DNA from: Candidatus Aenigmatarchaeota archaeon
GTDB taxonomy: Archaea; Aenigmatarchaeota; Aenigmatarchaeia; QMZP01
Assembly (NCBI GenBank): GCA_043824495.1
Contig: JBDRSV010000024.1
Span: 91,056-155,055, forward strand
Direction: 5' to 3'
DNA length: 64,000 bases
A program made the position numbers and the translations under genes. The first letter of the stretch is position 1. Every line of letters begins with the position of its first letter. The notes below the pieces were generated by a model. It made no database searches, was not told the DNA's origin, and was given only the letters and a program-made list of their open reading frames with translations. Below, one piece after another: positions 15,172-57,536 of this stretch.

Positions 15172-15315
15172 ACCCCCTTGACATCACCAAGGAATGAACA
15201 GGATATAAAGACCATACCGAACAAAAGTGAACAATCATGTTATATCCCTCTAATTAGACAATATAAAACAATCAGGTGCCGAGTGCACACCTAATTGTCC
15301 TTGCCAATCCTCTTC

Positions 15316-16422
15316 TCATCTCAGCTTCAAAAACGCTATATGAGGTGCAGGCAGCCACTTGACTAACGATTCAGTCCAAGAGAAAGACCATTTCAGCTTC
15401 TTCTTCATCTCGTGAACCTTCATACATTTCACCGAGACTAGATTCCAGTTCAGGATGCCGAAAGCTGTGCCCAAGAGACCACCGACAAGCATAACGAAGC
15501 CCTGTCCTACAAGATCCATTCCGGCGGAGGAAACGAGAAATTTGTAAGCGAGAAATCCGCCCAAGACTCCGTCAACTGCACACAACACTCTCTGGAAACA
15601 GTGAACCATCTTGATGATGTTCCAGATAAACTGACCGATAAATGTGAGGACCACCGAGATGCACACCAAGACAACGAAAATGACGGTCAGTGCAGTGAGA
15701 ATTGGGTACCAGACAGAAAGTAGAAGCAAACTGAAGAGAATGTATCCCATCGCGTTGAGATACCCGAGTTTTATTTCTCGGCGGTTCTTCTCCTCAAGGA
15801 AATACCTCCTTCTTAACACACCGATGTCGTATTTTTGGTCCGTGTGTCTGCTTATTCCGAGAGCCTCCCCAATACTCTTATAGTTGTACAAAACGTCTTC
15901 CCCGCTAGCGTCTTTCTTATCGACCATCATGAAAGGATAGAAGAACCTTCCGCGATCACGACTTCCAACAAAAGCGAGGAAAGAAAGAACGCCGGAAAAG
16001 ATCACAACACAGGCACCAGAGAGCGCCAACAGAAGAATGCTGCTGAGAGCGAGTTGAAGGATGTTCAGTGTTTCAGCATCTGCGAAAAGACCGGAAAATA
16101 TGTGATGTGCTGGCCACAAGCCGAGCACAAGACTCGGAAAAAGGAACGGGTGTGGCTTCGAGCATAACCAGTCCTTGGCTTTTCCGTAGTTGTCTCTGAT
16201 ATAAAACGGCCAAGTTCCGATATCATCCAACATCTCTCCGAGCATCACTTGGATCGCTTTGGCCACCTCACGGAGGTCGTAACCAAAATAACCAGCTGCT
16301 CCGCCGGCCAGGAAAGCAGCAACCCACATGTACAACTTGTCCGGCATCAGCCACATGGCAGTTGCACAGAACACGATGCCTCCAATGAAGCATCCGATTC
16401 CGATCTTCATCCAATCTTTCAT
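15316..16422 (-). CDS. Multi-pass membrane protein (hypothetical)
   Basis: Several hydrophobic helices. GC is intermediate (~47%). Confidence 0.5.
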   Translation of the reverse strand: MKDWMKIGIGCFIGGIVFCATAMWLMPDKLYMWVAAFLAGGAAGYFGYDLREVAKAIQVMLGEMLDDIGTWPFYIRDNYGKAKDWLCSKPHPFLFPSLVLGLWPAHHIFSGLFADAETLNILQLALSSILLLALSGACVVIFSGVLSFLAFVGSRDRGRFFYPFMMVDKKDASGEDVLYNYKSIGEALGISRHTDQKYDIGVLRRRYFLEEKNRREIKLGYLNAMGYILFSLLLLSVWYPILTALTVIFVVLVCISVVLTFIGQFIWNIIKMVHCFQRVLCAVDGVLGGFLAYKFLVSSAGMDLVGQGFVMLVGGLLGTAFGILNWNLVSVKCMKVHEMKKKLKWSFSWTESLVKWLPAPHIAFLKLR

Positions 16423-16489
16423 GGCGAAAATCTCCTTCTCGTTGTATTTCTTTGTTTATAGTTATCGTCCTAGAATTAATTCAAAACAA

Positions 16490-16996
16490 TCATATCTGCA
16501 AAGGTTCAAGCAGATACATCAGACTTCGGTCTCGTAATTCTGTCCTCTTATAAGGAGGGAGATCTATGAGACAAAGACTGGAAATACTCACGTGCATGGT
16601 TTGATACTTGGTTTCGTCTGCTTGGTACATTCCCGTAAAGATTATATTATTCAGGACAAACCCGGAAACTACTGTCCAGATCCAGAATGCCATCCATCCA
16701 TCGTACAAGAAGACGCTGGCAATCGCTGAAATGATTGCACCCACTGCGAGAACACCTACCTCAAAGAGAAGCATCGTAAAGATATCTCCCACGGGGTCGT
16801 TTTTGTCCTCTTCCCACCAATCCTCCATGACGAGTTCGTGGATAATCATGTCAATGAGATTCTGCCTGTTCTGCATTTTCTCGTGGTAGGCTATGAAACG
16901 AGTTGGTTGACGAATGTTGTGCCAGATGATCAATCCAATTGGCACCCAGATGACTGCTGTAGTGACAAGCAGCCAGAGAACTACTCTAGTTTCCAT
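16490..16996 (-). CDS. Membrane protein (hypothetical)
   Basis: Probable start METRVVLWLLVTTAVIW, with several TM segments. Confidence 0.45.
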   Translation of the reverse strand: METRVVLWLLVTTAVIWVPIGLIIWHNIRQPTRFIAYHEKMQNRQNLIDMIIHELVMEDWWEEDKNDPVGDIFTMLLFEVGVLAVGAIISAIASVFLYDGWMAFWIWTVVSGFVLNNIIFTGMYQADETKYQTMHVSISSLCLIDLPPYKRTELRDRSLMYLLEPLQI

Positions 16997-17234
16997 GTCC
17001 CCTCCAGGATTGATTGTTAGAAAAAATACTAGTATAATCACTCTCGTTAATTGACATTTCTGTCTTTCGTTGTCGTAGAGTATTGATTCCTAAATTACAG
17101 ATGATGACTTTACCTCGAACAAGAATCTTGTGCCAGGTGCTAAAAGTTGTCAGCGATGATAAATGTGGAACATGATGCATAGAATTTAACCTAAAATTTT
17201 ATAAACCTATACAAAACCTTTTTATACCTCTTAA

Positions 17235-17639
17235 TTGACAATATATAGTATGAAGAAAAAAGCAAAGAGGACCACAAAGAAAACAGTGAAAAAACCAGTC
17301 AAGAAAATAAAAATAGAAAAGAGAGTAACACCAAAACCAAAAAAAGAAGAGAAAATTAAATGTCCTTATTGTAAGAGTTCTAGAGTGGTTTGGAGAGGAT
17401 ATAGATACAACGAAAAGACTGACAAGCACTTAAGATTATGTAACAACTGTAAGAGAAAGTTCACAAAAAGAGACGAGTTCTTCCGTATGAGATTCGGTGA
17501 AGAAGAGATAAAAAGAGCTGTGGAATTATACAAGAAAGGTTATTCTTCTGCAGAAGTAGTTCAGAACCTGAAAAGAAATCATGGAATAAAGGTTTCAAGA
17601 TGGACTGTGATCTGTTGGCATAAGAGATACACTAAGTAA
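17235..17639 (+). CDS. Zinc-ribbon plus HTH protein. It resembles the N-terminal DNA-binding module of IS1 InsA and IS6-type transposases, but has no DDE domain.
   Basis: Lys-rich N-terminus, then CPYCKSSRVVWRGYRYNEKTDKHLRLCNNCKRKF (a C4 zinc ribbon), then an HTH-like region (GYSSAEVVQNLKRNHGIKVSRWTV). It ends 22 bp before junction motif copy 2. Confidence 0.5.
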   Translation: MTIYSMKKKAKRTTKKTVKKPVKKIKIEKRVTPKPKKEEKIKCPYCKSSRVVWRGYRYNEKTDKHLRLCNNCKRKFTKRDEFFRMRFGEEEIKRAVELYKKGYSSAEVVQNLKRNHGIKVSRWTVICWHKRYTK

Positions 17640-17660
17640 TTATTTTTTTTATCAGTTATT

Positions 17661-17681
17661 ATATCCCTTTAAATGGACAAT
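17661..17681 (+). repeat. Junction motif copy 2 (ATATCCCTTTAAATGGACAAT), at the left edge of a GC-rich block
   Basis: Forward orientation. A hairpin follows it on the GC side (GGGAGAGGTGCAG...CTGCACACTCTCCC). Confidence 0.6.
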
Positions 17682-17754
17682 GCAAAGGGAGAGGTGCAGT
17701 ATTCCACATCTGCACACTCTCCCACCACATCACCTTTTCAGGCTTTGCAGATTT

Positions 17755-19629
17755 TTACTTCAGAAGCGTCATCTTTTTGCTTTCCGTCAGGCTGGCCGTT
17801 TGCAACCGATAGAAGTACATACCGGACGCGACGGCCTTACCGTAGCGGTCGGTTCCGTCCCAGCTAACCTGATGTGTTCCTTCGGGCTGGGACCCGTTGA
17901 CGAGAGTGGCAACGTTGCGGCCGAGGATATCAAAGACCTCTAGCTTTACGTCTCCTCCCTGAGTCAACTGATAGGAAATCACGGTTCCGGCGTTGAAGGG
18001 GTTCGGGTAGTTCTGGTTCAAGCTGAATGATGTAGGAACGGCTCCTGTTGTCTTGTACGCGATGTTCAGCGTACCTAATGGAATCCACCCAGCCGGAACT
18101 GTCCGGCTGTTGTTGATCTCGTCAGCTATCGTTTTGGCCAACTCGTGATCGCCGAATGGATCGTCGATCAAGTTGTCGCAGTATGTTACCGCCTGTGACA
18201 CAGTCGCGCCGTCATCGCTAATCACAGCGGTTTGTGCCAGTTTGCCGCTAGCGACATTGAGTAGCAAAGCCATGAGTTGCTGTCTGGCTCGATCAATCAT
18301 GTCAACGCTGCCCTTGAGGTTCAGCAACGTCTTCGCGACTTCGAGCTTGTCTTCACAAAGATCCGACACGGGTGGATCGTACACGACGACCTCGTTCACT
18401 GCGTTCGAGTTGAAGTGGCCCGCGATGAGGTCGAGATAGCTACACAGAGTTGAAGCATCGATTTGCGCGCGGCCATTCCCACCAGTAGCGACGCCGACGT
18501 TGTGTTTCCAGAAGCCGATTGTTCGTTGTTCTCCAGCGTCTGACGGGCATCCCAATTCAAAGTCGATTTGGGCTGTGCCTTCACAATCGAGATCGACGGA
18601 CTGTTCGCTCGGAAATGCCGTATACCCGAGGGGGCCAACAAATGATACCATGTAGCTGGCCTCACCCGGGAGGTTCTCGAAATCGTAGTAACCGGCTTCA
18701 TCAGTCACAGCCGATTCTACAAGTACACCGGTGGCATCGAAGACATCAATCGTGATACCAAGAACAGAGCAGTCAGCACTCAGTGTGCCCTCAATTGCGG
18801 CGAAGCATTCTTCCTCTCCACCTCCGCATGCACACGTTCCATCTTCCACCTCAATGGCGGTGATGGTGTTGTCGTAGGCGTCCTTTGACCAGACGACGGT
18901 CAACGGCGCGAAGTTGATGACGTCGCATTCGAGATCCTCATCCCGACCACCGATCGTCGCGAAGTCACTGAGATACACGCCCGTTGTCTTGTCAATGCGA
19001 ACGATGTTGCCCAGACCATCGCGCCCGATGTAAAGGGTGTTCCCCGTCCCAACAATAACACCACTTATTCGATCCAGTGTATTGCCGGCCGCGTCGGTCG
19101 GATACAACGTTCCCAGATAGGCTCCCGAGCCCGCATCGAAGTGGTCAATGCCCGTTGATACATCATCGGAAACCCAGACACTGTTATCCGTCGCATCAAA
19201 GCCAATGCCGTCGATGAAACAGAAGCCCGGTGTTACCACAGAAAACTGGAAAGTGGCTACGCCGGTGGTGGGATCGATGAGATACACGTTCGCCGGACAT
19301 TCGTTGTCACTGCCTCCCCAGATCATGTTGCGCGTATTGTCCCATGCAATAGCGCCGATCGAAACTGGTGTGCCATCCGGTTTGAAAATGGAAACGAAGC
19401 CGAGATCGGTGCCGAATTTGTCTATCGAGTAGAGAGTTGGGTCGAAAGAGTTGGTGTAGAAAATCACACCATCACATCCAACTGCAACACCGATACCGAC
19501 ACCAGACGAGCTTGGAACAGGAACTGTGACGTTCGTGATGACATCACCGGGAGCTGCCATTGACGTAGCGGTGATAGCGGTGAAGAGGCAGAACACAACA
19601 AGCGCAGTGAAAGCTGTGAGACGCTTCAT
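17755..19629 (-). CDS. Large secreted protein with beta-propeller-like repeats, a carboxypeptidase-regulatory-like domain and a T9SS-type C-terminal sorting domain
   Basis: Signal peptide MKRLTAFTALVVFCLFTAITATSMA. The C-terminus NYPNPFN...VFDILGRNVATL...GMYFYRL matches the Por/T9SS C-terminal-domain consensus. GC-rich, bacterial (FCB-group-like). Confidence 0.7.
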   Translation of the reverse strand: MKRLTAFTALVVFCLFTAITATSMAAPGDVITNVTVPVPSSSGVGIGVAVGCDGVIFYTNSFDPTLYSIDKFGTDLGFVSIFKPDGTPVSIGAIAWDNTRNMIWGGSDNECPANVYLIDPTTGVATFQFSVVTPGFCFIDGIGFDATDNSVWVSDDVSTGIDHFDAGSGAYLGTLYPTDAAGNTLDRISGVIVGTGNTLYIGRDGLGNIVRIDKTTGVYLSDFATIGGRDEDLECDVINFAPLTVVWSKDAYDNTITAIEVEDGTCACGGGEEECFAAIEGTLSADCSVLGITIDVFDATGVLVESAVTDEAGYYDFENLPGEASYMVSFVGPLGYTAFPSEQSVDLDCEGTAQIDFELGCPSDAGEQRTIGFWKHNVGVATGGNGRAQIDASTLCSYLDLIAGHFNSNAVNEVVVYDPPVSDLCEDKLEVAKTLLNLKGSVDMIDRARQQLMALLLNVASGKLAQTAVISDDGATVSQAVTYCDNLIDDPFGDHELAKTIADEINNSRTVPAGWIPLGTLNIAYKTTGAVPTSFSLNQNYPNPFNAGTVISYQLTQGGDVKLEVFDILGRNVATLVNGSQPEGTHQVSWDGTDRYGKAVASGMYFYRLQTASLTESKKMTLLK

Positions 19630-20176
19630 GGATTTTTATTCCTTAGGTTGTGAGGGAAATATGACCCTCCGGGTTTGTTTTTCGATTAGTTTCTGATTGT
19701 TTGTCGTTTACCACGTTTCCAAGTTAAGGTCCGCGAATCGCTATTTTCATTGGCATCCTCTCTTTGGGTTAATGTTGTCCGCACAAATTGCGGGATTAAA
19801 AGAAGGAAAGACACAAAAGATAGAGTATGTCTTATGTAGACTGAGAGTAAAATCATTCGAAGAATAAAGCTAATACTATTAAAACAAACATGCATGTTTG
19901 ATGTGTTTCTTTTCATGTTTTTTGTGTTAGCCAATGTACCGTTTCTATGGTTAATTGGATTGATTGAGTTGCAATCAATACAAATTTAAATGATGTTCGA
20001 ATGAGTAGCATGATTTAAATTGTATACAAAAATTGACGTTGATTCATCGTCGTTTTTTTGTGTTTTGGTATTTTTTTTGATTCTAGCTTGTCGCTTTTGT
20101 CAAGTCTTTAACTCAAGTATATAGCTTACAGGTATTTAAATGTTTTCTAACACATTTTTTTTAATTTTCTTTCTTT

Positions 20177-20197
20177 TATCCCTTTAAATAGACATAT
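20177..20197 (+). repeat. Junction motif copy 3 (TATCCCTTTAAATAGACATAT), at the left edge of the ORF-free GC-rich region
   Basis: Forward orientation, followed by a weak AACGGGCG...CGCCCGTT inverted repeat with a ~38-nt loop. Confidence 0.55.
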
Positions 20198-23100
20198 AAA
20201 AAGGCAAACGGGCGAAGATTTGGAGCCAAACTCTTCTTGATGTCTCACCTCCGCCCGTTAAATGCCGTTGTCCGGCCTATCAATTTACCCGCCGGTTAGG
20301 TGAGCACATGTGCTCGTGTCCCAGAGGCGCATGTTTTCATGCCCTCCTTTGCCGGGTTCTTACGCGAACGTGCTGCTTGACCGAGATAATGTAGCTGCCA
20401 GATTCCCCACAACCTTGTTATTGGTGGAACCGCGACAGCGGTCGGTCCAGTCCGTATGCATCGTAGCCTCACTTGGTGAAGGACTGCGAATCAAGAGACG
20501 GGGATTCAGAAGAATCCCCGTCTCACGAGTTGACGGTTGGTACGAGATATATCAAAGGAAGTCTTTATGCCATTGGGTGCATTCCGAAACCTTTAGCCTC
20601 GTCCGTCTCCGAGGGATCCTATCAAAGGTTTCATAAAGGAAATTTCATGGACCTCGTTACGATAGGATCGGAGTGGCGTAAAGCCACGGCCAGAACCTCG
20701 AGGTCCCCCAGGATAAGATCACCGTTTGAATATGAGTCAGCGGTGAACGTAAGGGTGCTGGCGATTCTTCTTCGCATTCAAACCCTCCAGGGAACACTTC
20801 GTAATTTGTGTTGTCAGCGGCTGTTTACGAATCGGCGGTGATCGTTTCCACCACGGTACATGTCGGCGTGGTGACAAACGATGAAGAAGCGACTTCAAAA
20901 CGCGCGCGGCCATTGCTCGGCGGCGGCGAATGAGCCCAGGCATTGACGGCGGTCGCGGCGGTATTCATCCAGGAAGCGACCACTGGTGACCCGCGAAGGG
21001 TCGGTAATCGGTTCATAGAGCAAGCTCCATTTCTTCCGATAGGAAAATTCCAATCCACTTTACAAACTCTCGCCTAAACAGAAAGTATTGTCACATAACT
21101 TTCCGTCGCAAAAGAGAATGTGAAGAGGAAACAATTTCGTACACCTCGTCAAGAGATCGTCTCCATTTTCACCCTACATGGGCTAGGCGAGAGGATAGAC
21201 CAGTTGCTGATAGAGATGTAGAGGGAACCGTTTTCATCCGAAGATCTCTCCCGTCCCTCAGGGAGTAAGTTGCTCGTCCACCAGGTTCCCATACCAAGGG
21301 AGCTGGCAACTCTGCCATTCTCTCTATCCGACTCTCTGTTGTCATCGCCACTACGGCAACAACTCTTAGCCTATCCGGCGTAGGATTATGAGAGTGTAGA
21401 GCGAATTCCTCGTTCCATGTTTGTTCTGTATCGCTGCCTGTTATGATATCCAATCCTGAAAACGGGATTGGGTCAGCGGTATAAACAATACAGGAACCAT
21501 ATATGAGGTAGCAGAGTGTCATGATTCCCAGCATGACAACTCCTTACAAGGGCACATGGTTATATGGTAAATGCTCTCTCCGTCAACAAATCGTGCCCTC
21601 TAAGACATGTTTAGGAGAGAAAGGCGACAACTCATGAAGTGTTCTTCAGGTGGACCCGTCATCACTGTTATTGCGTTGACGGCCTTCTCCTTGACCCGGA
21701 CTTAGACGTGTGGCTTTCGGTGTTTTCGCGGCGCGTTTCTGCTGTTTTGGACTACGCTTCTTGTTGCTCGGAAGCCCGTCTCGGGCACCACCGTGACACG
21801 TCATGAAAGACCTCGTTTGTGAGGAGTTCAGTTCAAGCTTGTGCTGGAACTGTTTGGAACGAGGAATTGTTACTCTTTACGGCGAGCGATTGTGTGTCAT
21901 CGTAACTCCTTGACAATGGTTTCCACAAGCTCCAAAATAAAAAAGAGCTGTTGTTTTCAAATTCAGTTGGGAATCTCCTAGCCCGCCCCCAGAACTGACT
22001 AGAGGAGATCCCCAACTTTTGTACAGCGCACCCCGTGCATTGTTTTCAGGGTGGAGGGGCCCGGCGGTCAACTGAGCCCCTCACTGGACGAATCGGTCAC
22101 AGATAACATGTTACGCATTACCGACTCGAAATCTATGCCACGGCAGTAGATGGAAGTGGTCGCATCTACCGCCGGGCTTCACGACGTTGTGCATTTTGTC
22201 GCCTTCAGCCTTACACAACGCCGTTATTTCCCCACCCACAGGGAATTTAATATCGCGGGGCCTCACTCAGGAGACCCCGCTTCCGTTGGGTTTACTACCG
22301 AATTGTTCGGTAGCGTTCTTCCACGACAGACATACGCACATGCGCACGTCTTCATTTCTTTGAGGACCTACTCATCTCCGATTTGAGTAGGTCCTCGGCT
22401 CCCCACAACCCCCCGATCAGCACCGGGAATTTTTTTGAGGGGAAATCTGAGCAGATATCTCAGACTCCCCTCCCGTCAGGTCTACCGACCAGCACTTCCG
22501 GTTGGACGCCGGAAATTCTTTATTAGAAGGGGTTTCCCCTCTCCAAGAAACCCCTTCCTCTTCGGCGTAGCGCGTCTCACGCGCTTTAGTGCATCGATCC
22601 CCACCGATCAGGTAAAACCCTTGGATGGTTCTCTCCCCGAACCCCCACTGAAATATTTTGGAACCCCTCATAGATCCCCGTAATCTCCGAGAGGTTCCGA
22701 CAGCAGCACCATACAAATGGGACTACCGTGACAATCAAAAATACCGGAATCCACCGCGTCAGAAGAGGATTCCGGTATTCTACATCGCTGGTTGTGTTGA
22801 GAGCTTACCCCTTACTGGTCTTAACGAGTATGTTACGTCGGACTTCCTTTCACCAAATATACGGGTCACTACAGAATACCCGATCGATCCGCTTTGTTGT
22901 CTTAATCTCACCAGCGGATAGTGACGCGGTTACAGCCAGCGATTTCGCCTTTATACAACAGGCGTCTCCAAACCAAAATGGAAATTGGAGTTGTTGCTTC
23001 CACACTTCCGGATTTCCCCCTCCGGTAAACTCTAAGGTACTGATAGGTGACCGCTCGTGTTTCTTGTGTTCGCAATTGCCGATTGCATCAAGCTCTTCGT

Positions 23101-23949
23101 AGATCTAGATCTGGAAGTAATTAGCAAACGATCACAATAAACAGACAACTGGGAGAAGTCCATTTCTACCAGTACCTGGATTTTCTAACCCTCGGGAGGT
23201 GTGTACAAGCCTAAGCAGAGTTTGTCCTGTTGAATTGGCCCCGAGGGTAAGTGGCCTTCCGGAAGAGAATTGGTGAGGTCCTGTAACAGAACTCTATCTC
23301 ATTCCGGGGTAAAGCTCAAGGCACAGCCAGAAGGAGACGTATTACCTTGAGAAGTTGGTCTCCCGAGTGAAGAAATTCGAGATGTCCCATCGATGAAGGA
23401 CATCTCTTCTCCACTCGGGCTCATTCGTCAGCCTGGAAGGAGAAGTGCAAGAGTTTTCGCGCAATTACTCTCTCTCCTCCCGGGAAATTTATGACCTCCT
23501 GGTCCGAAACTTGTGCCGCGGTAAACCAGAAGGCGTAACTGCTAGGCTATGTGACGGCCACAGCAGTAGGGATCGAATCCAATACACGAAAGACAGCTAA
23601 GACTAACTCTGTCTCGTGTGGTTTACGAGTAAAATTCAGAAATCGATAGTCTTCGGCCTCTTCGAGGGAAACTGCTTAAGCGCTTAATTGCAGCGCGTTA
23701 TGTTTCCTGGTAAGTGACCTGTTCTCTAGGATGTACCGAAGGCTAACTTAGTTAGTCTCGGGAAATTCGCGTGTGATTGGTAGAAATGAAACATGAAATG
23801 TCCTTATATATAAATGTAATTTAATTACTTAAATAGGTTGATGGATAGCTTTAAAAAGGTACTATTAAAATTATTTTTTTGTGAAGGGATCGATATACCA
23901 AGTGCTTCCAAAAATAAAGAGTAGAAAAAAATAAGAGTGAAAAAAGCAA

Positions 23950-25992
23950 TTAACCAATGAATTCAACCTTTTCAAAACTGCCGTTTTCTTCAAATTTGTC
24001 TAATGTTGATACGAAAATTATTACTTTTTTCTTGTCTTCTTTACAGATTCTAGCTGCTTGTTGTATTACCATGTTCTTGATTCTGTCTGAAGCACATATG
24101 AAATGATTGCTTTGTTTCAAGTCCTGATAAATTAATTCTCTATCATCTGTGTCTTCAACCATTATAGTTAATTCTTTTCCATCGTTCTGTAAATATATTC
24201 TGTTACCTTCTTGTTCACTCTTCCATCCGACTTCATTAAAGGTCTGCATGATACCTGTTAAGTTCAATTCTTTTTTCTGTGTTGAGTTACCAAATTTATT
24301 AGTGAAAACTTTCTCTCCTATATTTGTAAGAAAGTAATAACATAATCTATTCTTCTTAACTTTAGCATCAGCTGAATCAACTAATCCGTTATAAGTTAAG
24401 TTCTCAACCTTTTTCTTGAAAGTTGCTCCTGACATTTTTACATTTGTGTATATCTGAGATGTGTAAGCAGCACTACCATTACCAATGGTTTTCATCATAG
24501 CCCACTCTTGTTCTCCTAAATCCTCAATTGGAAGAGAGTTTATGAATTCTTCTTCCTTTACTGGAGGAGGTGAGTAGCTATCTTCTTTAGCTATTCTGTC
24601 TTTCATGTGCTCTCTGATATCATCATCTACAATAGAGTTCTTAACCAGTTTAGCCTTGTCGAATTTTACAAGGAATGGTTCTGGGAAATTCATAGAGTGT
24701 CTCAAAAGCATGAAACCGTGACCTACTGGCAGTCTTCTTAGATACTTACCTTCTTCTCTAGAATCAAGACCAAGCATGTTTGAAGCGTCTTGAATATCTG
24801 AAGTATGTTTTGTATCCAAACCTAGATTCATGTATATATGAGTAGAAGTATTACCAATTGCTGGATATGAAACTAAAGATGGATGCTGATCTATGTATAT
24901 CATTCCTAATCCTAATTCTCTAATTTCTCTAAATATTAATTCTACAACGGTTTCTGATCCTAATTTGGCAGATTTTTCTCTGTTAAGAACATGATGAGCT
25001 TCTTCCATCACTATACATCCTATGACTTCTTCTTTTCCGCCTTCTACGAGTAACCAATCTCTTATCCACTGTAGAATTATTTCTATGATAAAGCTCTTAT
25101 CATTAACATCAAGAGCATCTAATTCTAGAATTGTTACCTTTCCTTTCTTGAAGAAATCAGATGGTTTTATACCTTCTACACAGTCGAATATATGACCTGT
25201 GTCTTTGAAGCATAATGACTCTAATGGTCTTTCAGCTGTTGCTAACCAGTTTCTTTCTCTTGTTGGCAGCTTACCTTCTGCATATTCTGCTAAGTAATCT
25301 TTAAGGTCAAACAGTGTTGGATTTTTCTTTTCCTTGAAAACTCCATCTAAAGCTTTCAAGATTACGTGTCTTCCACCACCGAGTAACCAGTAAGAATGAT
25401 CGAATATTGAAGAGAACTCTTTCATCCACTGTGTTTGACTAATTCCTTTAGGACCTTTCAGTGGATTGAATTTGAAAGGAGCTACGCCTCTTCCGATTGT
25501 GTAAATATCTATTTTGTCTTTAATTTTAGTTGATAGTAAATCTTTATAATTTCTCTTAGAGAAATCAAATATCAAAACAGGAATATCCTTTTCTGCTAAT
25601 TCTTCAATTAAGTTATATGAAATATTTGTTTTACCATAACCAGATGAACCAAATATTCCTATATGTGTAAGTAAGTTTTTCTCTTCTAGCATGATTGGAT
25701 ATAAACCCTTTCTTCCGTATAAAACATCACCTAATCTAATTGTTCCTTTAGCTGCTGCTTCTTGGCTAGGAGGTTCCATTAGTACTGTATCTCTTAGATC
25801 TTCATCAGCAGAAACTGCGGCTTTTATAACATCAAGTAGTTCGAAGATTCTTTGTCTTACATCTTCGTTTCCAACTAAGTAAGCTTTACTTAATCTCAAA
25901 GCTTTGTCTTTACCCAAGATTGGAGTAAGCTTCTTAATTTCATCTGCAATTAGTTTTTCTTGAATATTAATCATTTGTACCACCCAAATCAT
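23950..25992 (-). CDS. HerA/DUF87-like P-loop ATPase (FtsK-HerA superfamily) with a C-terminal wHTH-like extension
   Basis: Walker A GIFGSSGYGKTN and Walker B-like IVMEEAHHV. 680 aa, in an AT-rich archaeal-like segment. Confidence 0.7.
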   Translation of the reverse strand: MIWVVQMINIQEKLIADEIKKLTPILGKDKALRLSKAYLVGNEDVRQRIFELLDVIKAAVSADEDLRDTVLMEPPSQEAAAKGTIRLGDVLYGRKGLYPIMLEEKNLLTHIGIFGSSGYGKTNISYNLIEELAEKDIPVLIFDFSKRNYKDLLSTKIKDKIDIYTIGRGVAPFKFNPLKGPKGISQTQWMKEFSSIFDHSYWLLGGGRHVILKALDGVFKEKKNPTLFDLKDYLAEYAEGKLPTRERNWLATAERPLESLCFKDTGHIFDCVEGIKPSDFFKKGKVTILELDALDVNDKSFIIEIILQWIRDWLLVEGGKEEVIGCIVMEEAHHVLNREKSAKLGSETVVELIFREIRELGLGMIYIDQHPSLVSYPAIGNTSTHIYMNLGLDTKHTSDIQDASNMLGLDSREEGKYLRRLPVGHGFMLLRHSMNFPEPFLVKFDKAKLVKNSIVDDDIREHMKDRIAKEDSYSPPPVKEEEFINSLPIEDLGEQEWAMMKTIGNGSAAYTSQIYTNVKMSGATFKKKVENLTYNGLVDSADAKVKKNRLCYYFLTNIGEKVFTNKFGNSTQKKELNLTGIMQTFNEVGWKSEQEGNRIYLQNDGKELTIMVEDTDDRELIYQDLKQSNHFICASDRIKNMVIQQAARICKEDKKKVIIFVSTLDKFEENGSFEKVEFIG

Positions 25993-26515
25993 TAAAGATC
26001 TTTAAGATCTTATTTTCTGTTTGTAGTTGTTCCAGGAGCTCTCTTAGCTCTGTTTTTAATTCTAATCCATCTCTCCAAAAAAGAATATTTTCTTGTCTTT
26101 TTTCTTTTCTGAGAATAGAAACATCAAGTTTGAAATTTCTCTTTTCATCGATGTCTGTGATATGATTCATCATATCGTCTTTTTCTTCGATGTCTTCTTC
26201 AATTTCTTTTAAGAATGTTTTGTGGAGAACTTCTCTTTCTTTCATAGTGTTTTCAATTTCACTAACTCTTATTTGCAAGAATTCTACTTTATCGAATAAG
26301 CTTCCAATAACTAGAGGATCATCTCTTTTTAGAGCAGTGAGTTTACTTTCTTCAAATCTTGGCATTGATCTTTTCTTAATAATTTGAACTTCTCTAACTT
26401 CGGGTTCATCTAGATCAATCTCATCATGTCTAATTAAAGACTCACGTCTTCTCTTTTTTGTAATGTCTTCATACTCGTCAAGAGTTTTATAATAGGGTTC
26501 CATTAATCTGTCCAT
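25967..26515 (-). CDS. Coiled-coil protein, partner of the HerA-like ATPase
   Basis: Highly charged and heptad-rich (EIENTMKEREVLHKTFLKEIEEDIEEKDD...). Its stop overlaps the ATPase start, so the two form an operon. Confidence 0.5.
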   Translation of the reverse strand: MDRLMEPYYKTLDEYEDITKKRRRESLIRHDEIDLDEPEVREVQIIKKRSMPRFEESKLTALKRDDPLVIGSLFDKVEFLQIRVSEIENTMKEREVLHKTFLKEIEEDIEEKDDMMNHITDIDEKRNFKLDVSILRKEKRQENILFWRDGLELKTELRELLEQLQTENKILKIFNDLGGTND

Positions 26516-27377
26516 AATAATTACCTCGAGTGACCATTTGTCACTATCTGATAGTTAAAATATGTATAAAGGGTTTATAAAGCTTTCGGTTAGCTTGCAG
26601 TGTGCTGTTTTTGAGCGTAAAAATCGTGTACGAAAGACAATTTTCTTGGGTTTCCATGACTTTTGTGCCAACGAAAGACATATTCTGTCTTTAGTAAGAG
26701 AGTTAATAAAGATTTCTGTCTCGCGCCTTATAAAGGATCCGAATTGGATATTTTATATAGTAATTAATTACTATTGTAGAGATCTTTATTTACTTAAGTC
26801 TTTACATAAATAATTCTCAAATACTTTTTGTCTTTGCTAAAGTTTAATGCAGATTTTCCTCGAAACTTTTGTGGAAATTCTTGAAATCAAATGTCTTCTA
26901 GTTTTGCTAGAGCTTTTGAAGACATGGAAACTCTCATAAAACCCCAACCGAAAAGTATTTAAACCCTTTGACTATAATTTCACTATAGATTAGTGACAAC
27001 AAATTAAGAAATGTCTGAGTTATGTGTGGTGTCAAATCCTACATAACTATCTTTACAATCTACGCAACTTTGAATAAAAAGAATTTCGGGTTAAACTCGC
27101 AATTCTAAACTCAGAGAAATTGAGTGCACAGGAATTTAGGCGCGGCCTAAAATCCCCATAAGAAATCCAAAAAAATGACACGCTTTGTGTCAAAAAATGT
27201 GATTTGAGGGGGTTTGATTTCCTTAGCTCTGAGTATCTACTTTTCGAAAACCACGAAGACTCGCGTAACAATTCTAAGCAATAAATATAGTGAAATTCCA
27301 GACTTCTGTAGACTTTCGCTGTCTGACATAGAAATTAACAAGTTGACAATAAACGGAAACTTCTGGGAGGGATTGTC

Positions 27378-27740
27378 ATGAGAAATATCATGAGCTGTGT
27401 TTTCCTGCTGCTCACATTATTCCTGGTGAGTTGTGCGAAAAGTGGTCCGGAGCTGGGGAGTGATATCCGGATCAGTGGAACAATCGTCGACATGAGCGAA
27501 GGAGGTAGTAGGGATTTCCTGATCCAGTCCGGAGGAAAACTCTACCATTTCGGTACTCGACTGCAATTTAAATGGAGTAAACTTCGTGCGGGACATTACG
27601 TCACCGTGGATGGGAAGTTTGGGGGACCGTGCGAGGAAGCCTCAATGTTCAGACGCTACATGTACGACGACGAAGGGAACTTCATCAAGTCCCTCGAGGT
27701 CTATGACATCATCCATGTTTCGAACGTGGAGAGGCAGTGA
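27378..27740 (+). CDS. Putative lipoprotein (hypothetical)
   Basis: MRNIMSCVFLLLTLFLVSCAKS is a lipobox signal. A TTGACAATAAAC promoter-like element lies ~35 nt upstream. Confidence 0.5.
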   Translation: MRNIMSCVFLLLTLFLVSCAKSGPELGSDIRISGTIVDMSEGGSRDFLIQSGGKLYHFGTRLQFKWSKLRAGHYVTVDGKFGGPCEEASMFRRYMYDDEGNFIKSLEVYDIIHVSNVERQ

Positions 27741-28240
27741 TCCCACTGAGTTCATCCAATTCATCGGGTGGACCCAGATGAGATTATTGTCTAAAGGCTA
27801 AATCAGCAGGCCTTGAATTGTTGGTAGGGATCATTGGAAGATTCCCAAAAACATGGCAAGGAGGGCAACATGTCGCAGGGAACCAAAAACACCAAAGACA
27901 CAGGAACAAGAGCGTTTCTGGTTATCGACGGAACTACAGGAGACCTCATTCCTGTGAAAGCATCGTCTGGACGAAAAGCTGAGCAAATCGCCGGCAGCGT
28001 AACCAGACAATCCCGCAAATAAAATTACCCACTGTGAATTCCCCAGGAGTATCATCCGCCCGGAAGATACTCTGTTCTCCCCCATACTACCATAGGCCAC
28101 ACGGAGCTCATCAGGTTTTCACTTGGTGGGCTCCAGTGAGATCTTTGGTGGTTAACGTTCCATAACCGTTTCATTCACAACCTTTTGCCGACCTTGTCTG
28201 CATTGCAGCTCAAGGAAGTGTGTAAAGGAAGGAGAGTGTC

Positions 28241-28942
28241 ATGTTATTGCATGTAACAGTAATAAGCCGCGGAGACAGAACAACGATCGATGTTCCCAGA
28301 ACAGAATTCAACTGGGATACCAATCAATGTCGCGTAGTTGAAGGTGCAGAGGAAGCTGAAAGAAATCTCGGGGTGGCGGAGAATCTCGAAATCCGTAAAC
28401 CCGCGGCTTACCAGGGACCCTATTTATACTGTATTGTAGAGGTGGGGTTCGAGGAAATTTGTTTTCCCCCGACTTTCCTCAAGTGGATCGAGAATGTTCC
28501 CGAGGATGAGAAAAGAGCCATCCTTATCGTTCCCACCAAAACCATCCGAAAGGCCGATGATAGTCACTATATGGGATCTATAGATCGTTATAGGTATTAT
28601 CCTCATGGTGAAGTCTTCCTGATTGGTCGCAGAATCATCGTGAGGAACATCTACCTATCACCTGATAACATCAAGATGGTGGTGGATAAAATCCTTGCCC
28701 GACTGAGTGACGGCCTGTTCCTCCGGTTGGCCTTTGAGTTTCTCCAGGCTACGCCGATCAGTGACAATCCTACGGTGACTGGAGAACATATCACCATGTT
28801 GGATAATCTCTTCACGGGGACGCGTTCCCTTCGGAGAGGAGATTCAACTCGTCGCGAACGGTTCAATCATGTTCGGGCCGTGATTGGACATATGGCCAAA
28901 CACGGGATAGTTCTGTCTGGCAAGATCGAACCCGTGAAGTAA
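28241..28942 (+). CDS. Hypothetical protein
   Basis: Preceded by a strong SD (AAGGAAGGAGAG). The upstream leader is conserved with the one before 32758. GC-rich. Confidence 0.5.
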   Translation: MLLHVTVISRGDRTTIDVPRTEFNWDTNQCRVVEGAEEAERNLGVAENLEIRKPAAYQGPYLYCIVEVGFEEICFPPTFLKWIENVPEDEKRAILIVPTKTIRKADDSHYMGSIDRYRYYPHGEVFLIGRRIIVRNIYLSPDNIKMVVDKILARLSDGLFLRLAFEFLQATPISDNPTVTGEHITMLDNLFTGTRSLRRGDSTRRERFNHVRAVIGHMAKHGIVLSGKIEPVK

Positions 28943-28983
28943 TCAACGGCTTGGAAACCAAGTCAAATCAACGACAATGAAAG

Positions 28984-29316
28984 TTGAGGTGTAATATGAA
29001 TAGGCGAATACAGAGTATGATTGTGATGACTGCGACTTTGATAGCTGTTGCAGTCTTTCTCCAAGTCTCACAGCTTCACGCGGCACATTTGATGGCAACC
29101 GCAATTGCAATTGCGGTTGTGGTGATGATCGTTGTTAACATGGGAAGAGTTCCCAACACTCGGCAGAAGTTTCGGAACTTCTCTGTCGGAGCCGTTTTCG
29201 GGAGCATCTTCCTGTGGGAGTTGTTCAAGGTTACGTTCTTGAATCACCCTGCGGCTCTTTGGAGTGTGGTTGTACTCGGAGCTGCGGCAGTCTCATTTCT
29301 GACGTTCCGCCGGTAG
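28984..29316 (+). CDS. Small membrane protein (hypothetical)
   Basis: Three hydrophobic helices. Confidence 0.4.
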   Translation: MRCNMNRRIQSMIVMTATLIAVAVFLQVSQLHAAHLMATAIAIAVVVMIVVNMGRVPNTRQKFRNFSVGAVFGSIFLWELFKVTFLNHPAALWSVVVLGAAAVSFLTFRR

Positions 29317-29387
29317 TACTGAAGTTCACCGGGGATCCCGATCAATCTGGTTGGGATCCCCTCAACCTGACAATAAACTGTTGTTAA

Positions 29388-30233
29388 ATGTTCCATTACA
29401 CCAAGGAGGGCGCAATGCGTCACCAACGTTTCATCACCACAGTACTGGCACTCATGTTCTTGACTGTGCCGGCAATGTTCAGCAGTGCGGTTCTGGCCGA
29501 TCCGATTTCATCCGGAGACGGTCAAATGTATGTGGTCCAACAGGGAGATTGGTTGACGCGGCCGATCATCCCGACACTCTACTCGGATGTGTTGAAGCCA
29601 GGCGACTTGAAGAGTGCTCTCTGGATCGCTGACATCTTCGATACACTCAACATTAACATCACCCACCGCGACAAAATTCGGGCGTATGATACCATCATGG
29701 CGCCGTCATTCGCGGCGTTGAAGAAGTACAAACATCTCGCACCCGCCGACGTGGTCATCAACCTGTTCGCCACGTATGATATCGCGTCCATGGAACTTGT
29801 GGACGCCGAGTTTGTAAGAAAGCGCATCGAGGACTTTGAGGGTACTTACTGGTACAAAAATCGAGCCGCGTGGGCCCGAATTTTCGGAGTCGGTAATGGC
29901 ACGTATGTCTGCGGTGACACCGTGATGCCGTTCTCATGGTTCATGAGCTGCAATACGGACGGTAATACGGGAATGACTATCTCCATCTCCATGGACGAAG
30001 GAGATCTCACCGCAGTTCGCAAGGTTCCAGGTACACGTAACGGATTCTGGGGAGCCAGTCGTGACAATAAGTTCACATACGTGGGCTTCGGCAACGACTG
30101 GATCGATCGTTGCGACTGGAATGACGAGACCGAGAGCTGGGACATTCCACCAGTTCTGAATGAGATCGTCGGAACTCTCAACAACTTTCCATTCGTCCAG
30201 TATATGACCGTCGTCGCGTACGAACTGGAATAG
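29388..30233 (+). CDS. Secreted protein, paralog A (hypothetical)
   Basis: Signal peptide and TM region. The C-terminal region (FSWFMSCNTDGNTGMT) resembles the FAWVAWTNTDGNLQF region of the next gene. SD CAAGGAGGG. Confidence 0.55.
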   Translation: MFHYTKEGAMRHQRFITTVLALMFLTVPAMFSSAVLADPISSGDGQMYVVQQGDWLTRPIIPTLYSDVLKPGDLKSALWIADIFDTLNINITHRDKIRAYDTIMAPSFAALKKYKHLAPADVVINLFATYDIASMELVDAEFVRKRIEDFEGTYWYKNRAAWARIFGVGNGTYVCGDTVMPFSWFMSCNTDGNTGMTISISMDEGDLTAVRKVPGTRNGFWGASRDNKFTYVGFGNDWIDRCDWNDETESWDIPPVLNEIVGTLNNFPFVQYMTVVAYELE

Positions 30234-30294
30234 TTGTTACAGGGGATCCTGACCAATTCGGTTGGGATCCCTTCAACTTGACAATTAACGTAAC

Positions 30295-31659
30295 ATGTTA
30301 ACAATGAATACCAACAGAGAAGGAGAAAGTCAAATGTGTAACATCATCATCCGTACCATCGTGGCACTGGCACTCATGGTTCTGATCGTGCCGGCCATCA
30401 CCAACATCGCAATTGCGGACGGAACGCCGTGTGGTCTCACCGTAGGTAATGGCAACGACATCGATCGCGACTTCGTTGCATTCCTCAACAAAGAAGGAAT
30501 CAGATGGTTAACAATCGAGGAATTCGTTGAGTGCTACTCCCAACTGATCGGTCCAGGTAGTACCATGTTGAGCACCACTCGGGGATATGGCTGGGGATAT
30601 ATTGACGTTCCTTTCAAGTTTGGCGATTCGGTCGCGTCTATAGTGAACATGGAGATCATGCCAGGCGTCCGGATCAATATGGCTTGGGATCAAGCGGTCA
30701 TCTTCTACAAATATGCGAATAATCATGGAATGCATATTCTGAAGAAGACGGAGAATGACCGTGAGGTTCCGGCCTGGAGCGGCTTGATTGATGAAGCTAC
30801 GGTGCGTCAACATGTCAACGGCTTCGAAGTGTCCGCGCAGATTCCGAGTGATGTTCTGGAATCGGATGTTGCGATTATCCGGATGCGAGATTTAAAGGAC
30901 GCCTACTTGGCCGAGAACACCGACGTTATCGAGTCTTACCTCATCGAGAAGTTTGACCTCGACGACGATTCCGAGCCGTATTCTGACAATCGGCCAAATA
31001 TATTTCATCGCAGTGGCGAAGTCTTACTGGACTCGGAGATGTTCTTCGTGTATGAAGGTCTGGAAATTCTCAATCTCATCATCAATGATCGGTGGATTGG
31101 TGTACGATTCCCCGGATCGACCTATATCCACTTCATCAACATCGGACCGAGAAAAGTCCACGACTTGAATGCCAACTTCGTCGAGACGAAAACTCCGAAC
31201 AACACCGGCGGTCAGATCAGTATCCCGCAGGATGTGATCGAAAAGATGACGTGGATCGATTCCGTCTATTCGGATAGGATGTCCCCGAATCCGATGTTAG
31301 GTTTCGGAAACGGTGAGTACCTGGCGAGCTCTGGGATCGTTTCGTTCGCGTGGGTTGCCTGGACCAACACCGATGGCAACCTCCAGTTCTATCTCAATGT
31401 TCTCCTTAACATTGATCATCAGGTGACGATCGAGACTGTGTCTCACTACGGTGGGCCTGATGTTTGGAGGGCGTGGAGTCCGAATCAGACCTGCACAGAG
31501 GTGGAGACTGGAAACGGCTGGTGTTATATTCACTGTTCCCAGTCGGAAAGTGGACCTCGAATCTGCGACTATAGACAAGCCTTGGACGATGCAGTCGCGG
31601 CGTTCAATGGCATCGATTTCTTCACGAACATGAAGGTGATCATGTACACGGTGAAGTAA
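30295..31659 (+). CDS. Secreted protein, paralog B (hypothetical)
   Basis: Signal peptide and TM region (IIIRTIVALALMVLIVPAI). Shares the C-terminal module with paralog A, and has the same hairpin-plus-TTGACAAT upstream module. Confidence 0.55.
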   Translation: MLTMNTNREGESQMCNIIIRTIVALALMVLIVPAITNIAIADGTPCGLTVGNGNDIDRDFVAFLNKEGIRWLTIEEFVECYSQLIGPGSTMLSTTRGYGWGYIDVPFKFGDSVASIVNMEIMPGVRINMAWDQAVIFYKYANNHGMHILKKTENDREVPAWSGLIDEATVRQHVNGFEVSAQIPSDVLESDVAIIRMRDLKDAYLAENTDVIESYLIEKFDLDDDSEPYSDNRPNIFHRSGEVLLDSEMFFVYEGLEILNLIINDRWIGVRFPGSTYIHFINIGPRKVHDLNANFVETKTPNNTGGQISIPQDVIEKMTWIDSVYSDRMSPNPMLGFGNGEYLASSGIVSFAWVAWTNTDGNLQFYLNVLLNIDHQVTIETVSHYGGPDVWRAWSPNQTCTEVETGNGWCYIHCSQSESGPRICDYRQALDDAVAAFNGIDFFTNMKVIMYTVK

Positions 31660-32092
31660 AGCCGAACGCCACGAATTACTAATCCGCTCTTCTTCCCAAA
31701 GAAGTGTGGCTAGTGTGAAAGGAGTATGGGAAGGTTCCACAGTAGTAGCATCAACGGCAAAAAGTAAAAGACAAAAAAATGAAGGCCAAACCCGAGGAGG
31801 AACTCGAAGTGAAGACGAAACGAAGGTCATGCCAATATCCCATTTCGCCCATGATGGCGACTCATATTCTCATAGTCTGACCGGCCGCCGGCGACGCCAC
31901 GGGCCTCTTATATAGTTAGCGGGGCCCATCGCCAATGCAGTCAAAATCCCGGGTAGGCTTCAACCCCTACCCGGGGTTCCAAATGAGCTCATCTAGTTCA
32001 GATATTTTCTAGGTGGGCCCATTTGGAATTGTAAATGATTGTTGACTGTTCAATGAGCGTTCCGAAAGGAACATTGCAAGGAGATTTTTATC

Positions 32093-32557
32093 ATGACACA
32101 GCAGATGACATCAGTACCAGATGGTTGGGGCGGAGCAGGTGGCGACAGTCTCGGCACAGATGCACTCGAGCTTCTGAAGAAAATGGGATTCGACAATGCA
32201 ATGGGACAAGCGTTGCTCGGCAGCTTTAATCCACAGGGTTTCGTGGATGCGCTTCTCACGTTCCGACCGTTCCCGGTTGGCGGAGTCTCTCCCGAAGCTC
32301 GGAACGAGAGCAGAGAAGCTCAGTGGATTTATCTCACATGGATCTTCACCAGTCGGCAGAGAGCCTCCTTTCCCGTCGAAGGGGTGAGTGGCCTTGCTGA
32401 CTTCGTGGATATTGTCCGGAAAGCACAGAGCGATGCGGACGCGAACGAACATGCAGTTCGAATCTTGTCCAGGTTTGGGTGTGTCGATCTCCTCGTTGGT
32501 GAAGGTCGGACCTTCTTGCACACGAAAGCCATCGATTTCGCTAATTCCCAAACGTAA
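32093..32557 (+). CDS. Hypothetical protein
   Basis: Complete 154-aa ORF flanked on both sides by the repeated intergenic hairpin module. Confidence 0.45.
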   Translation: MTQQMTSVPDGWGGAGGDSLGTDALELLKKMGFDNAMGQALLGSFNPQGFVDALLTFRPFPVGGVSPEARNESREAQWIYLTWIFTSRQRASFPVEGVSGLADFVDIVRKAQSDADANEHAVRILSRFGCVDLLVGEGRTFLHTKAIDFANSQT

Positions 32558-32757
32558 GTCCGCGACATCACCAACCAATCCCGGGAACAAGACAGTTCAA
32601 TCTGTTCCCGGGTTCCAAATGAGTTCATGTGGTTTGATTTCTTGACTAGGTGGGCTCATTTGGAATTGAGTTGTAGTAGAACCATAACCCATTCACGACC
32701 TTTTGTCGACCCTGTCTGATATCAGTTCAGGGAAGAATCTAAAGGAAGGAGAATTCA

Positions 32758-34749: not shown

Positions 34750-34830
34750 GCGTGTAGTTATCATTCACACCCCGCCTGGATTCAATTCCAGGCGGGGTTG
34801 ATCATGAAATAAAGAGAAGGGGAGTGTACC

Positions 34831-35835: not shown

Positions 35836-35973
35836 AACCAACATTATCCTTTCAACATTTGATGGAGGACGGGTCATGAAACTAGTCTTAAATCGTAGGC
35901 ATCTTATAGATCCCGCCAGTGTCATTGGGCCACGCGTGAACTGGTTGTTCTCCTGAATGGCCAAGAGGTTCAG

Positions 35974-36222
35974 GTGCGTCCTATCGACCAGACGATAATT
36001 CTGATCGGACGCGATCCGGAATGTGACGTAATACTCGATAATCGCGCCGTCGACTTCTTCCATGCTCACATTGATTTCGGCGAGAATTTTGTAGTAATTG
36101 ACAACGTGTCACTCAACGGCACGTTTGTCAACGGAGAAAAGGTCGAGAAAGCGGTTCTCCGTCCTGGTGATGTGATCACAATAGCCAGGTATGAGATTCA
36201 CATCCGGTCCCTCCGGAAGTAG
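35974..36222 (+). CDS. FHA-domain protein, N-terminally truncated or frameshifted
   Basis: GRDPECDVILDNRAVDFFHAHIDF...DNVSLNGTFVNGEKV...PGDVITIARYEI is the FHA consensus. The FHA-like sequence continues upstream (ELVVLLNGQEVQV) with no start codon. MKLVLNRR... sits in a different frame at 35876-35953. Confidence 0.6.
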   Translation: MRPIDQTIILIGRDPECDVILDNRAVDFFHAHIDFGENFVVIDNVSLNGTFVNGEKVEKAVLRPGDVITIARYEIHIRSLRK

Positions 36223-36286
36223 ACGACGCGATGGTAGTCTTGTTCCAATTCCGTACAGGTGTTTACAAAATCTGTGCGGGATTTGT

Positions 36287-56951: not shown

Positions 56952-56968
56952 TTTTTTATAACCTTCTA

Positions 56969-57528: not shown

Positions 57529-57536
57529 GTCTGTGA

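Follow-up and report, generated by a model that had tools for sequence, protein, structure and literature searches.

A candidate gene for a long, locally folded non-coding RNA within a variable array of motif-terminated units in an Aenigmatarchaeota archaeon

The Hgc RNAs, reportedly described by Klein, Misulovin and Eddy in 2002, are GC-rich structured RNA genes in AT-rich archaeal genomes. Bacteria have families of large non-coding RNAs (ncRNAs), whose sequence and long-range architecture are conserved across species. Here we analyzed B4 (20202–23800, minus strand), a GC-rich, hairpin-dense stretch without open reading frames (ORFs) that lies next to a HerA-like ATPase gene in 64 kb of DNA from an Aenigmatarchaeota archaeon; these whole 64 kb are called the window. 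Because it has no coding signal, folds in excess and tolerates G·U mismatches on one strand, we propose B4 as an ncRNA gene of ~3.6 kb. We hold with moderate confidence that it is a long, locally folded minus-strand ncRNA gene, the local version of a unit that is conserved in position and hypervariable in sequence, in a lineage-specific array of units that each end in a 27-nt motif. By analogy, B4 would work most like the Hgc genes and the large bacterial ncRNAs, and it is a member of none of these families.

Like the Hgc RNA genes, B4 is a gene-free island of high GC content in an AT-rich archaeon, with strong predicted structure, promoter- and terminator-like ends and a preferred strand. However, B4 has ~3.6 kb and the Hgc RNAs have ~100–300 nt, the sequence of B4 has no detectable conservation among its relatives, and none of the Rfam Hgc models matches it. 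GC content alone does not mark RNA here, since the host also has GC-rich protein-coding islands. With OLE, GOLLD, ROOL, HEARO/IscB omega-RNA and raiA, B4 shares the kilobase scale, the lack of coding, the high degree of structure and, for some of them, a place in mobile or variable regions. In contrast to these RNAs, B4 keeps only its position, end elements and foldedness. Its predicted form is a chain of local hairpins, its host is an archaeon, and no model of these families matches it.

The surroundings of B4 resemble integrons. Archaeal integrons are known, and attC sites of restricted diversity were reported in Aenigmatarchaeota (Ghaly et al. 2022, PMC9668308). As in integrons and clusters of attC sites lacking integrases (CALINs), tandem interchangeable units end in a hairpin-containing site beside a conserved gene, and their content varies between close relatives. 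Some units are ORF-less, and solitary units also occur at other places in the genome. Tandem variable units were found in the window array, in L063 (five motif copies), in L074, and as an insertion in L079 relative to L069; these L-numbers denote related archaeal loci, which were found by motif-pattern scans and protein-anchored look-ups. The site itself is different: where an attC would have paired R''/R' and L''/L' boxes, each unit has a linear 27-nt motif beside an unconserved hairpin. Inspection of these hairpins showed unrelated sequences without conserved R'' (RYYYAAC) or R' (GTTRRRY) cores. Since the motif also lacks an inverted counterpart, we rejected it as attC. In further contrast to integrons, the array units apparently have their own promoters, judging from sequence, and the adjacent conserved gene is a transposase-derived Zn-ribbon/helix-turn-helix (HTH) gene. 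No IntI or other tyrosine recombinase (Phage_integrase-type domain) was found in window ORFs of at least 150 aa, and a CALIN needs none.

CRISPR arrays share with B4 a hypervariable non-coding locus, putatively transcribed here, at a conserved position beside conserved genes. Unlike them, the unit has no direct repeats and no adjacent cas genes. The window has no CRISPR array, and a lone Cas4-like PD-(D/E)XK nuclease gene (36936–37589, plus) lies 13 kb away. Following the idea that the hairpins might be spacer-like, we searched hairpin arm-plus-loop words (20–23 nt) against IMG/VR and found no match.

The proposed transcript would start at TATA/initiator-like elements ~120–190 nt downstream of the HerA-like gene (~23,783–23,839), run for ~3.6 kb along the minus strand, and end with a strong hairpin (20,207–20,259), oligo-U and the conserved 27-nt motif. 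The RNA is predicted to fold locally, as "beads on a string" of several dozen unrelated stem-loops, not as one conserved architecture. Its gene would be one unit of the variable array between the arginyl-tRNA synthetase (ArgRS) and Zn-ribbon/HTH genes and the HerA-like gene. The position, end structure and folding of the unit are kept but its sequence is not, which suggests very fast evolution or cassette replacement. The lack of coding signal, the excess of structure, the strand-specific wobble tolerance and the conserved position and end elements are observed; transcription of the stretch, the two ends of the transcript and a function are inferred. The sequence-only reading had offered three candidates: a large structured ncRNA, heavily decayed genes, or the non-coding backbone of an element. 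The fold, the strand excess of G·U, the end elements and the synteny favor the first. The second did not hold up, and the third survives only in the sense that B4 is one motif-delimited unit of an array.

The absence of any long reading frame, which had drawn attention to the stretch, was confirmed. Between 20198 and 23750, the longest ORF starting with ATG, GTG or TTG has 124 aa, and the longest stop-to-stop frame has 142 codons. Reassignment of TGA, TAG or TAA, singly or in pairs, opened no long frame in the stretch. A six-frame Pfam scan of the stretch found no domain, even at E ≤ 1. Its stop-to-stop peptides (2,283 aa) had no match among 5.8 billion proteins; this search also missed the stretch's own 121-aa ORF, so its sensitivity is uncertain. 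That ORF, the only one reported by the gene caller and the largest on the minus strand, matched only itself in an exhaustive HMMER search of 1.84 billion cluster representatives. The period-3 signal was at background over ~85% of the stretch, with a weak bump at 20650–21250 (values of 2.0–3.0 vs a 99% null of 2.3). With a codon-usage score trained on the neighboring GC-rich genes, the best value in the stretch was 0.05, compared with 0.04 in shuffles; four of the five neighboring GC-rich genes scored 0.28–0.36 and the fifth 0.11.

Known RNAs were also not found. Rfam 15 gave no match at gathering thresholds in the whole window. At E ≤ 10 over 19600–24100, the only matches were three junk snoRNA matches (E 4–7), none of them rRNA. 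The covariance-model search for large ncRNAs that the sequence-only reading had proposed matched nothing: the models for OLE, GOLLD, ROOL, HEARO, group II introns, RNase P, SRP and Hgc RNA all failed to match the stretch, and Rfam gave no match in the equivalent gaps of the relatives. The rRNA-like words noticed earlier are present (GGTGTGTACAAG at 23198 and GTGCCGCGGTAA at 23514) as isolated 12-mers. The apparent link to rRNA fell away, since no small- or large-subunit rRNA model matched even at E ≤ 10, and the words are therefore taken as coincidence. No tRNA gene and no C/D-box sRNA pattern was found in the stretch. Comparison by blastn with plasmids and phages showed no similarity, nor did comparison with the rest of the window. 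Within the unit, no word of at least 9 nt is repeated beyond chance, and TRF reported no tandem repeats.

The stretch is strongly folded. All four hairpins quoted by the sequence-only reading exist, as perfect stems of 11–13 bp: 20495–20524 (13-bp stem, 4-nt loop), 22362–22396 (13-bp stem, 9-nt loop), 22526–22557 (11-bp stem, 10-nt loop) and 22740–22779 (13-bp stem, 14-nt loop). Perfect stems of at least 11 bp are in ~400-fold excess (4 observed vs 0.01 expected from 100 dinucleotide shuffles), and the neighboring GC-rich coding blocks have 0–1. The local fold of the whole stretch has a z of about −12 to −13, equal on both strands; the B3 gene and the island C genes, used as controls, give −2 and −5.9. 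The minus strand carries 30–32 uninterrupted helices of at least 8 bp, compared with 11.2 ± 3.3 in shuffles and 16 on the plus strand. In 150-nt windows, the mean fold z is −1.4 (plus) and −1.8 (minus), vs −0.1 to −0.6 in coding blocks.

Three blocks of the minus strand are especially folded. The densest (21965–22790) consists of ~20 back-to-back unrelated stem-loops of 25–60 nt each, with 150-nt window z values down to −8.4 compared with −4.9 on the plus strand; the segment 22050–22800 alone has ~19 consecutive, mutually unrelated stem-loops and a z of −11.4. A second block (23254–23630; window z of −5.6 and −6.8) lies near the 5' end of the unit. The third, marked by window z and stem-loops, lies near the 3' end (20379–20672) and includes the 13-bp hairpin at 20495–20524. 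Most hairpins of the dense block are not followed by a T-run, and we rejected stacked terminators as their explanation for this reason.

The best evidence that RNA is involved came from a strand-specific mismatch test, which needs no alignment. The sequence is folded with Watson-Crick pairs only, so that the helices are identical on either strand, and 1×1 mismatches with at least two pairs on each flank are counted. A G·T mismatch on one strand is A·C on the other, and neutral decay of DNA palindromes is expected to give both types equally. In B4, 10 G·U mismatches were counted on the minus strand and 1 on the plus strand (p = 0.003). Six ORF-less units, B4 included, had 34 in the sense of the HerA-like gene and 8 on the other strand (share in dinucleotide shuffles 0.47, p = 6e-6). 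A seventh unit, that of L082, gave 5:1, for a total of 39:9, with the shuffle calibration being that of the first six units. Three coding controls in the window gave 2:2, 1:4 and 2:2, and base composition predicts ~0.5; in the HerA-like genes of L082 and L083, the counts were 5:2 and 1:0. With a stricter form of the test, based on seed extension, the counts were too low to be useful. The excess of G·U on the HerA-sense strand points to selection on a minus-strand RNA, in which case the helices would matter in RNA read in the HerA sense, which is the minus strand of the window.

The ends of B4 were examined with the 27-nt junction motif, which reads TTTATATTGTCWATTTAAAGGGATATA in unit sense and TATATCCCTTTAAATAGACAATATAAA on the plus strand. 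The window has six strong copies and one weak copy: 3004–3030 (minus), 15241–15267, 17221–17247 (weak), 17660–17686, 20175–20201, 36282–36308 (minus) and 56967–56993. The copies differ from one another in sequence, and all six strong ones lie at AT/GC junctions beside GC-rich islands. Given this small number in 64 kb and this location, we rejected the motif as a general host promoter. Every GC-rich block has the motif at one edge, with a 12–16-bp hairpin of unrelated sequence 2–10 nt away on the GC-rich side. In the sense of the GC-rich genes, the order is fixed: gene or genes, the hairpin, then TTTAT-ATTGTCWATTTAAAGGGATATA. All motif-terminated units in the window and the relatives have this identical end layout, and the arrangement of hairpin and motif was also found in Aenigmatarchaeota and other uncultured archaeal contigs with GC contents from ~37% to 62%.

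B4 follows the same layout. As the sequence-only reading had stated, the stretch begins at a copy of the motif (20175–20201, plus; TTTATCCCTTTAAATAGACATATAAAA on the plus strand; position weight matrix score 34), which in unit sense comes directly after a terminal hairpin. This hairpin (20207–20259, minus) reads AACGGGCGGAGG...CTTCGCCCGTT, is followed by TGCCTTTTTAT, and forms a terminator-like 3' end. At the other end, a promoter-like region (23783–23839, minus) has TATA-like elements at 23802–23815 and 23827–23839 and a box, GAAATGAAACATGAAATG on the plus strand, at 23783–23800; the sequence suggests its role. Units of L063 and L072 likewise carry the box and the ACTTAAATAGGTT element at their 5' ends. 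Directly after the stop codon of the HerA-like gene, oligo-T runs resembling archaeal terminators (23905–23949, minus) would separate the HerA transcript from the ORF-less unit. With a promoter-like 5' end and a hairpin plus motif at the 3' end, the stretch has the anatomy of a complete minus-strand transcription unit without an ORF.

The motif sequence was not found in the literature searched, nor was anything comparable for structured RNAs of DPANN archaea. The motif pattern also matches a conserved Sphingobacterium gene segment (CTTATCCCTTTAAATAGACATTG), at ten genome-contig loci and several metagenome loci. The Sphingobacterium loci (L003, L005–L008, L011, L014, L017 and L020) have unrelated flanks, and this match is a coincidence that would contaminate a naive motif census.

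To place B4 among its relatives, we examined eight genomes including that of the window; L069, L070 and L071 represent one organism from three samples. The conserved gene order is ArgRS, a Zn-ribbon/HTH protein of 95–129 aa, variable DNA and, on the other strand, the HerA-like ATPase and a 182-aa protein. Among orthologous flanking proteins, identity reaches only ~70–77% in the closest cases. Seven of the 8 genomes have an ORF-less unit of 0.8–3.9 kb on the downstream side of the HerA-like gene. It ends in hairpin and motif in the window (3.6 kb), L069/70/71 (2.3 kb), L072 (2.5 kb), L080 (1.4 kb), L081 (0.8 kb) and L082 (~1.5 kb). The L079 genome has a unit of four genes, which ends in a hairpin and motif of its own, between the HerA-like gene and the ORF-less unit. 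The latter has ~3.9 kb, of which 3.3 kb are gene-free, and retains a TATA-rich 5' region. Its first ~220 nt, TATA-rich and promoter-like, are homologous to the start of the L069 unit. Apart from this L069/L079 5' region, the unit bodies showed no similarity to each other by blastn (word size 7), nhmmer or shared k-mers.

What the units have in common is folding and base composition. All ORF-less units are over-folded, more strongly in the HerA sense, with mean window z values of −1.2 to −2.1 compared with ~0 to −0.5 in the flanking genes; the L082 unit as a whole has a fold z of −8.5 in sense and −3.5 in antisense. The GC content of the units is 41–54%, regardless of that of the adjacent HerA-like gene (33–50%). 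The unit is richer in GC than the gene in the window (49 vs 33), L079 (45 vs 36) and L080 (50 vs 38), and this contrast is not seen in L069 (41 vs 41), L072 (54 vs 50) or L081 (43 vs 50). Such a contrast is known from structured RNA genes in AT-rich archaea, and old neutral DNA would not be expected to show it.

Several observations weigh against an ncRNA gene. L083 has called genes where the other genomes have the ORF-less unit. No alignable homologue was found, so there is no support from covariation. For a functional RNA, it is unusual that the units have no detectable sequence in common when the flanking proteins are 51–70% identical. Small counts underlie the wobble asymmetry (10:1 in B4 and 39:9 overall). 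In principle, strand-biased mutation could yield such asymmetry, though the transcribed coding controls do not have it. Paired and unpaired positions are no different in GC content from those of shuffles. Finally, several stems are perfect 13-bp Watson-Crick palindromes and the two strands have the same whole-region fold z, so some of the signal could belong to the DNA and not to an RNA.

The main rival explanation is that B4 is inert foreign DNA at an insertion hot spot, either one horizontally acquired non-coding piece or several that accumulated, with hairpins that are DNA palindromes without an RNA role, for instance left by terminators or made by template switching. The region from the Zn-ribbon/HTH gene to the HerA-like gene is indeed variable among relatives and holds unrelated units, the islands share a non-host tetranucleotide signature to which B4 is intermediate, and the unit bodies lack sequence conservation. 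The four perfect palindromic stems and the equal whole-region z also fit this explanation. However, DNA palindromes are not expected to give a strand-specific excess of G·U, and 7 of the 8 genomes have an ORF-less, over-folded unit with this end structure at the same place. B4 has also kept 49% GC in a genome of 33% GC, whose intergenic DNA has 22–30%, and the lack of T-runs after most hairpins of the dense block argues against stacked terminators. We regard inert DNA as unlikely. A DNA-level element, in which the palindromes are sites for protein binding, recombination or replication (targets of the Zn-ribbon/HTH or HerA-like protein, or the single-strand origin of an integrated replicon), would likewise account for perfect palindromes and comparable fold z on both strands. 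Its neighbors encode a transposase-like DNA-binding domain and an ATPase of the DNA-translocase type. But the palindromes are all different and share no repeated word, which leaves no common binding site; the wobble asymmetry favors RNA, and no replication or recombinase gene is in or beside the unit. We consider such an element improbable.

Decay of protein-coding genes from a GC-rich donor is more improbable still, and is given very little weight. It could explain the weak period-3 bump at 20650–21250, and homology searches could miss pseudogenes of the neighboring island genes, since these are mostly orphans. However, no frame has a codon-usage signal, there is no period-3 signal over the rest of the stretch, neither Pfam nor the protein databases gave a match, and no recoding rescues a frame. 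In an AT-biased genome, decay that lasted long enough to remove every coding signal would be expected to lower the GC content as well. The last alternative, a rearranged known RNA (rRNA, group II intron, OLE, GOLLD, ROOL or HEARO) or an assembly chimera joined at the motif, is essentially excluded. It had been suggested by three short rRNA-like words and by the presence of the same motif at every AT/GC junction. The Rfam results described above do not support a known RNA. In the case of a chimera, the motif copies differ from one another, similar arrays occur in relatives from other samples, and a Logan contig from run SRR26275509 is identical to the window over 17094–29629, which includes four junctions, although it may come from the same sequencing run.

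In the ncRNA reading that we favor, the neighbors of B4 may be informative. The upstream neighbor is the HerA/DUF87-type ATPase gene (23950–25992, minus; Pfam DUF87), whose orthologues in the relatives are 51–70% identical. Its product, an ATPase of the HerA/FtsK type, has weak, sub-threshold matches to the CedD and HerA models, including anti-phage HerA. Upstream of it is the conserved 182-aa gene (25967–26515, minus), which has synteny in the relatives and no family match. At the other end of the array, a gene at 17250–17639 (plus) encodes a 129-aa Zn-ribbon/HTH protein that resembles the N-terminus of IS6/IS1595 transposases and has no catalytic domain. The motif directly follows this gene in the window, L063, L069, L072, L074 and L078. 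Because the motif always follows it and the gene is conserved beside ArgRS, its product is a candidate motif-binding protein. The HerA-like ATPase and the Zn-ribbon/HTH protein, as conserved neighbors, hint at nucleic-acid transactions or genetic conflict as the setting of the putative RNA. As a guess, the RNA might be a stable scaffold, a decoy or a precursor linked to the HerA-like/Zn-ribbon-HTH module.

The array of motif-terminated units spans from the Zn-ribbon/HTH gene to the HerA-like gene. In the window, it includes the coding unit B3, which ends with the motif copy at 17660–17686 (plus). The product of the B3 gene (17755–19629, minus) has 624 aa and combines SdrD_B-like and FlgD_ig domains with a C-terminal sorting domain of type IX secretion (Por_Secre_tail), here in an archaeon; an FlgD_ig protein is also found in the corresponding variable region of L079. 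In L063 (2333–6262), five tandem motif copies follow the Zn-ribbon/HTH gene at distances of ~0.75–1.15 kb. The L063 units contain tRNA genes (3679–3836, minus) or small protein genes and have in common a conserved 5' module of ~130 nt. L063 5511–5685 looks like an intron-containing tRNA missed by ARAGORN and Rfam. L074 (1675–3068) has at least three motif copies, with a tRNA gene in one unit. On an uncultured archaeon contig, L002, a copy of the motif and a homologue of the Zn-ribbon/HTH gene are located ~3 kb away from a group II intron (4288–4449, plus; D1-D4-7 model, 63 bits).

A bolder proposal, which we consider rather unlikely as it stands, is that the array represents an undescribed cassette platform of Aenigmatarchaeota and perhaps other DPANN archaea, in which self-contained units are captured, swapped and scattered. 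Each unit would consist of a promoter, a body, a variable hairpin and the 27-nt end motif, and the units would accumulate in the interval from the gene of a domesticated transposase DNA-binding protein to that of a HerA-like ATPase. Downstream of the ATPase gene, the unit would give rise to a hypervariable hairpin chain of RNA, kilobases long, that acts together with the flanking proteins, and B4 would be that RNA. It might then serve as a fast-turnover guide, decoy or memory RNA in genetic conflict, or as the RNA part of the capture machinery.

The host backbone is archaeal (Aenigmatarchaeota, DPANN) and has ~33% GC. Its gene products include L24P/L26e, S4e, L5, S7, an Rpb3-like RNA polymerase subunit, ArgRS and an intein-interrupted inositol-1-phosphate synthase. 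Blocks of ~45–60% GC are set in this backbone at ~868–3030, 15241–17041, 17687–19629, 20202–23790, ~27400–36308 and 56967–59100. In 100-nt bins, the ORF-less stretch mostly has 44–60% GC and its flanks (19800–20200 and 23800–24200) have 22–30%, with sharp edges at 20201 and ~23790. The tetranucleotide signatures of the GC-rich blocks correlate with each other at 0.58–0.82 and with the host at ~0–0.25; the values for B4 (20202–23800) are intermediate, 0.37–0.51 with the islands and 0.22–0.34 with the host. Most genes of the neighboring GC-rich islands are orphans without a Pfam or PHROG match. The coding GC-rich blocks, B4 excluded, have no counterpart at the corresponding places in the relatives. 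They behave as insertions, since the window carries additional DNA at several points compared with L063 and L069, and they look like horizontally acquired units.

Other features of the window and its relatives were recorded. The largest GC-rich block (~27400–36308) is also over-folded for coding DNA (z = −5.9). It has three repeat pairs (29328–29378/30239–30289, 31971–32031/32607–32668 and 28206–28235/32723–32752), which are hairpin-containing intergenic elements and Shine-Dalgarno-bearing leaders 5' of ORFs. The inositol-1-phosphate synthase gene (47035–49560, minus) is split by an intein with a LAGLIDADG endonuclease; its orthologue at L032 14–1107 aligns on both sides of the intein, which is apparently absent there. 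The window also encodes a fused restriction-modification enzyme of the Eco57I/MmeI type (39330–42056, minus) and a DDE_Tnp_1 transposase (44028–45038, plus).

DPANN archaea have tiny genomes with little spare DNA, so a gene-free unit of 1–4 kb that is kept at a single locus in 7 of the 8 genomes is unlikely to be free baggage. The stretch is a real, non-coding feature and probably an RNA, and its main interest lies in positional conservation without sequence conservation and in its cassette-like context. If transcribed, it would be an unusual long RNA, apparently selected for foldedness, position and end signals and not for sequence. Comparative RNA discovery based on covariation is blind to RNAs of that kind. 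The motif-terminated units, with their GC-rich sequence, foreign tetranucleotide signature, protein or tRNA genes and variation between close relatives, point to lineage-specific gene capture in these symbiotic archaea, and the 27-nt motif gives a simple sequence handle on this route.

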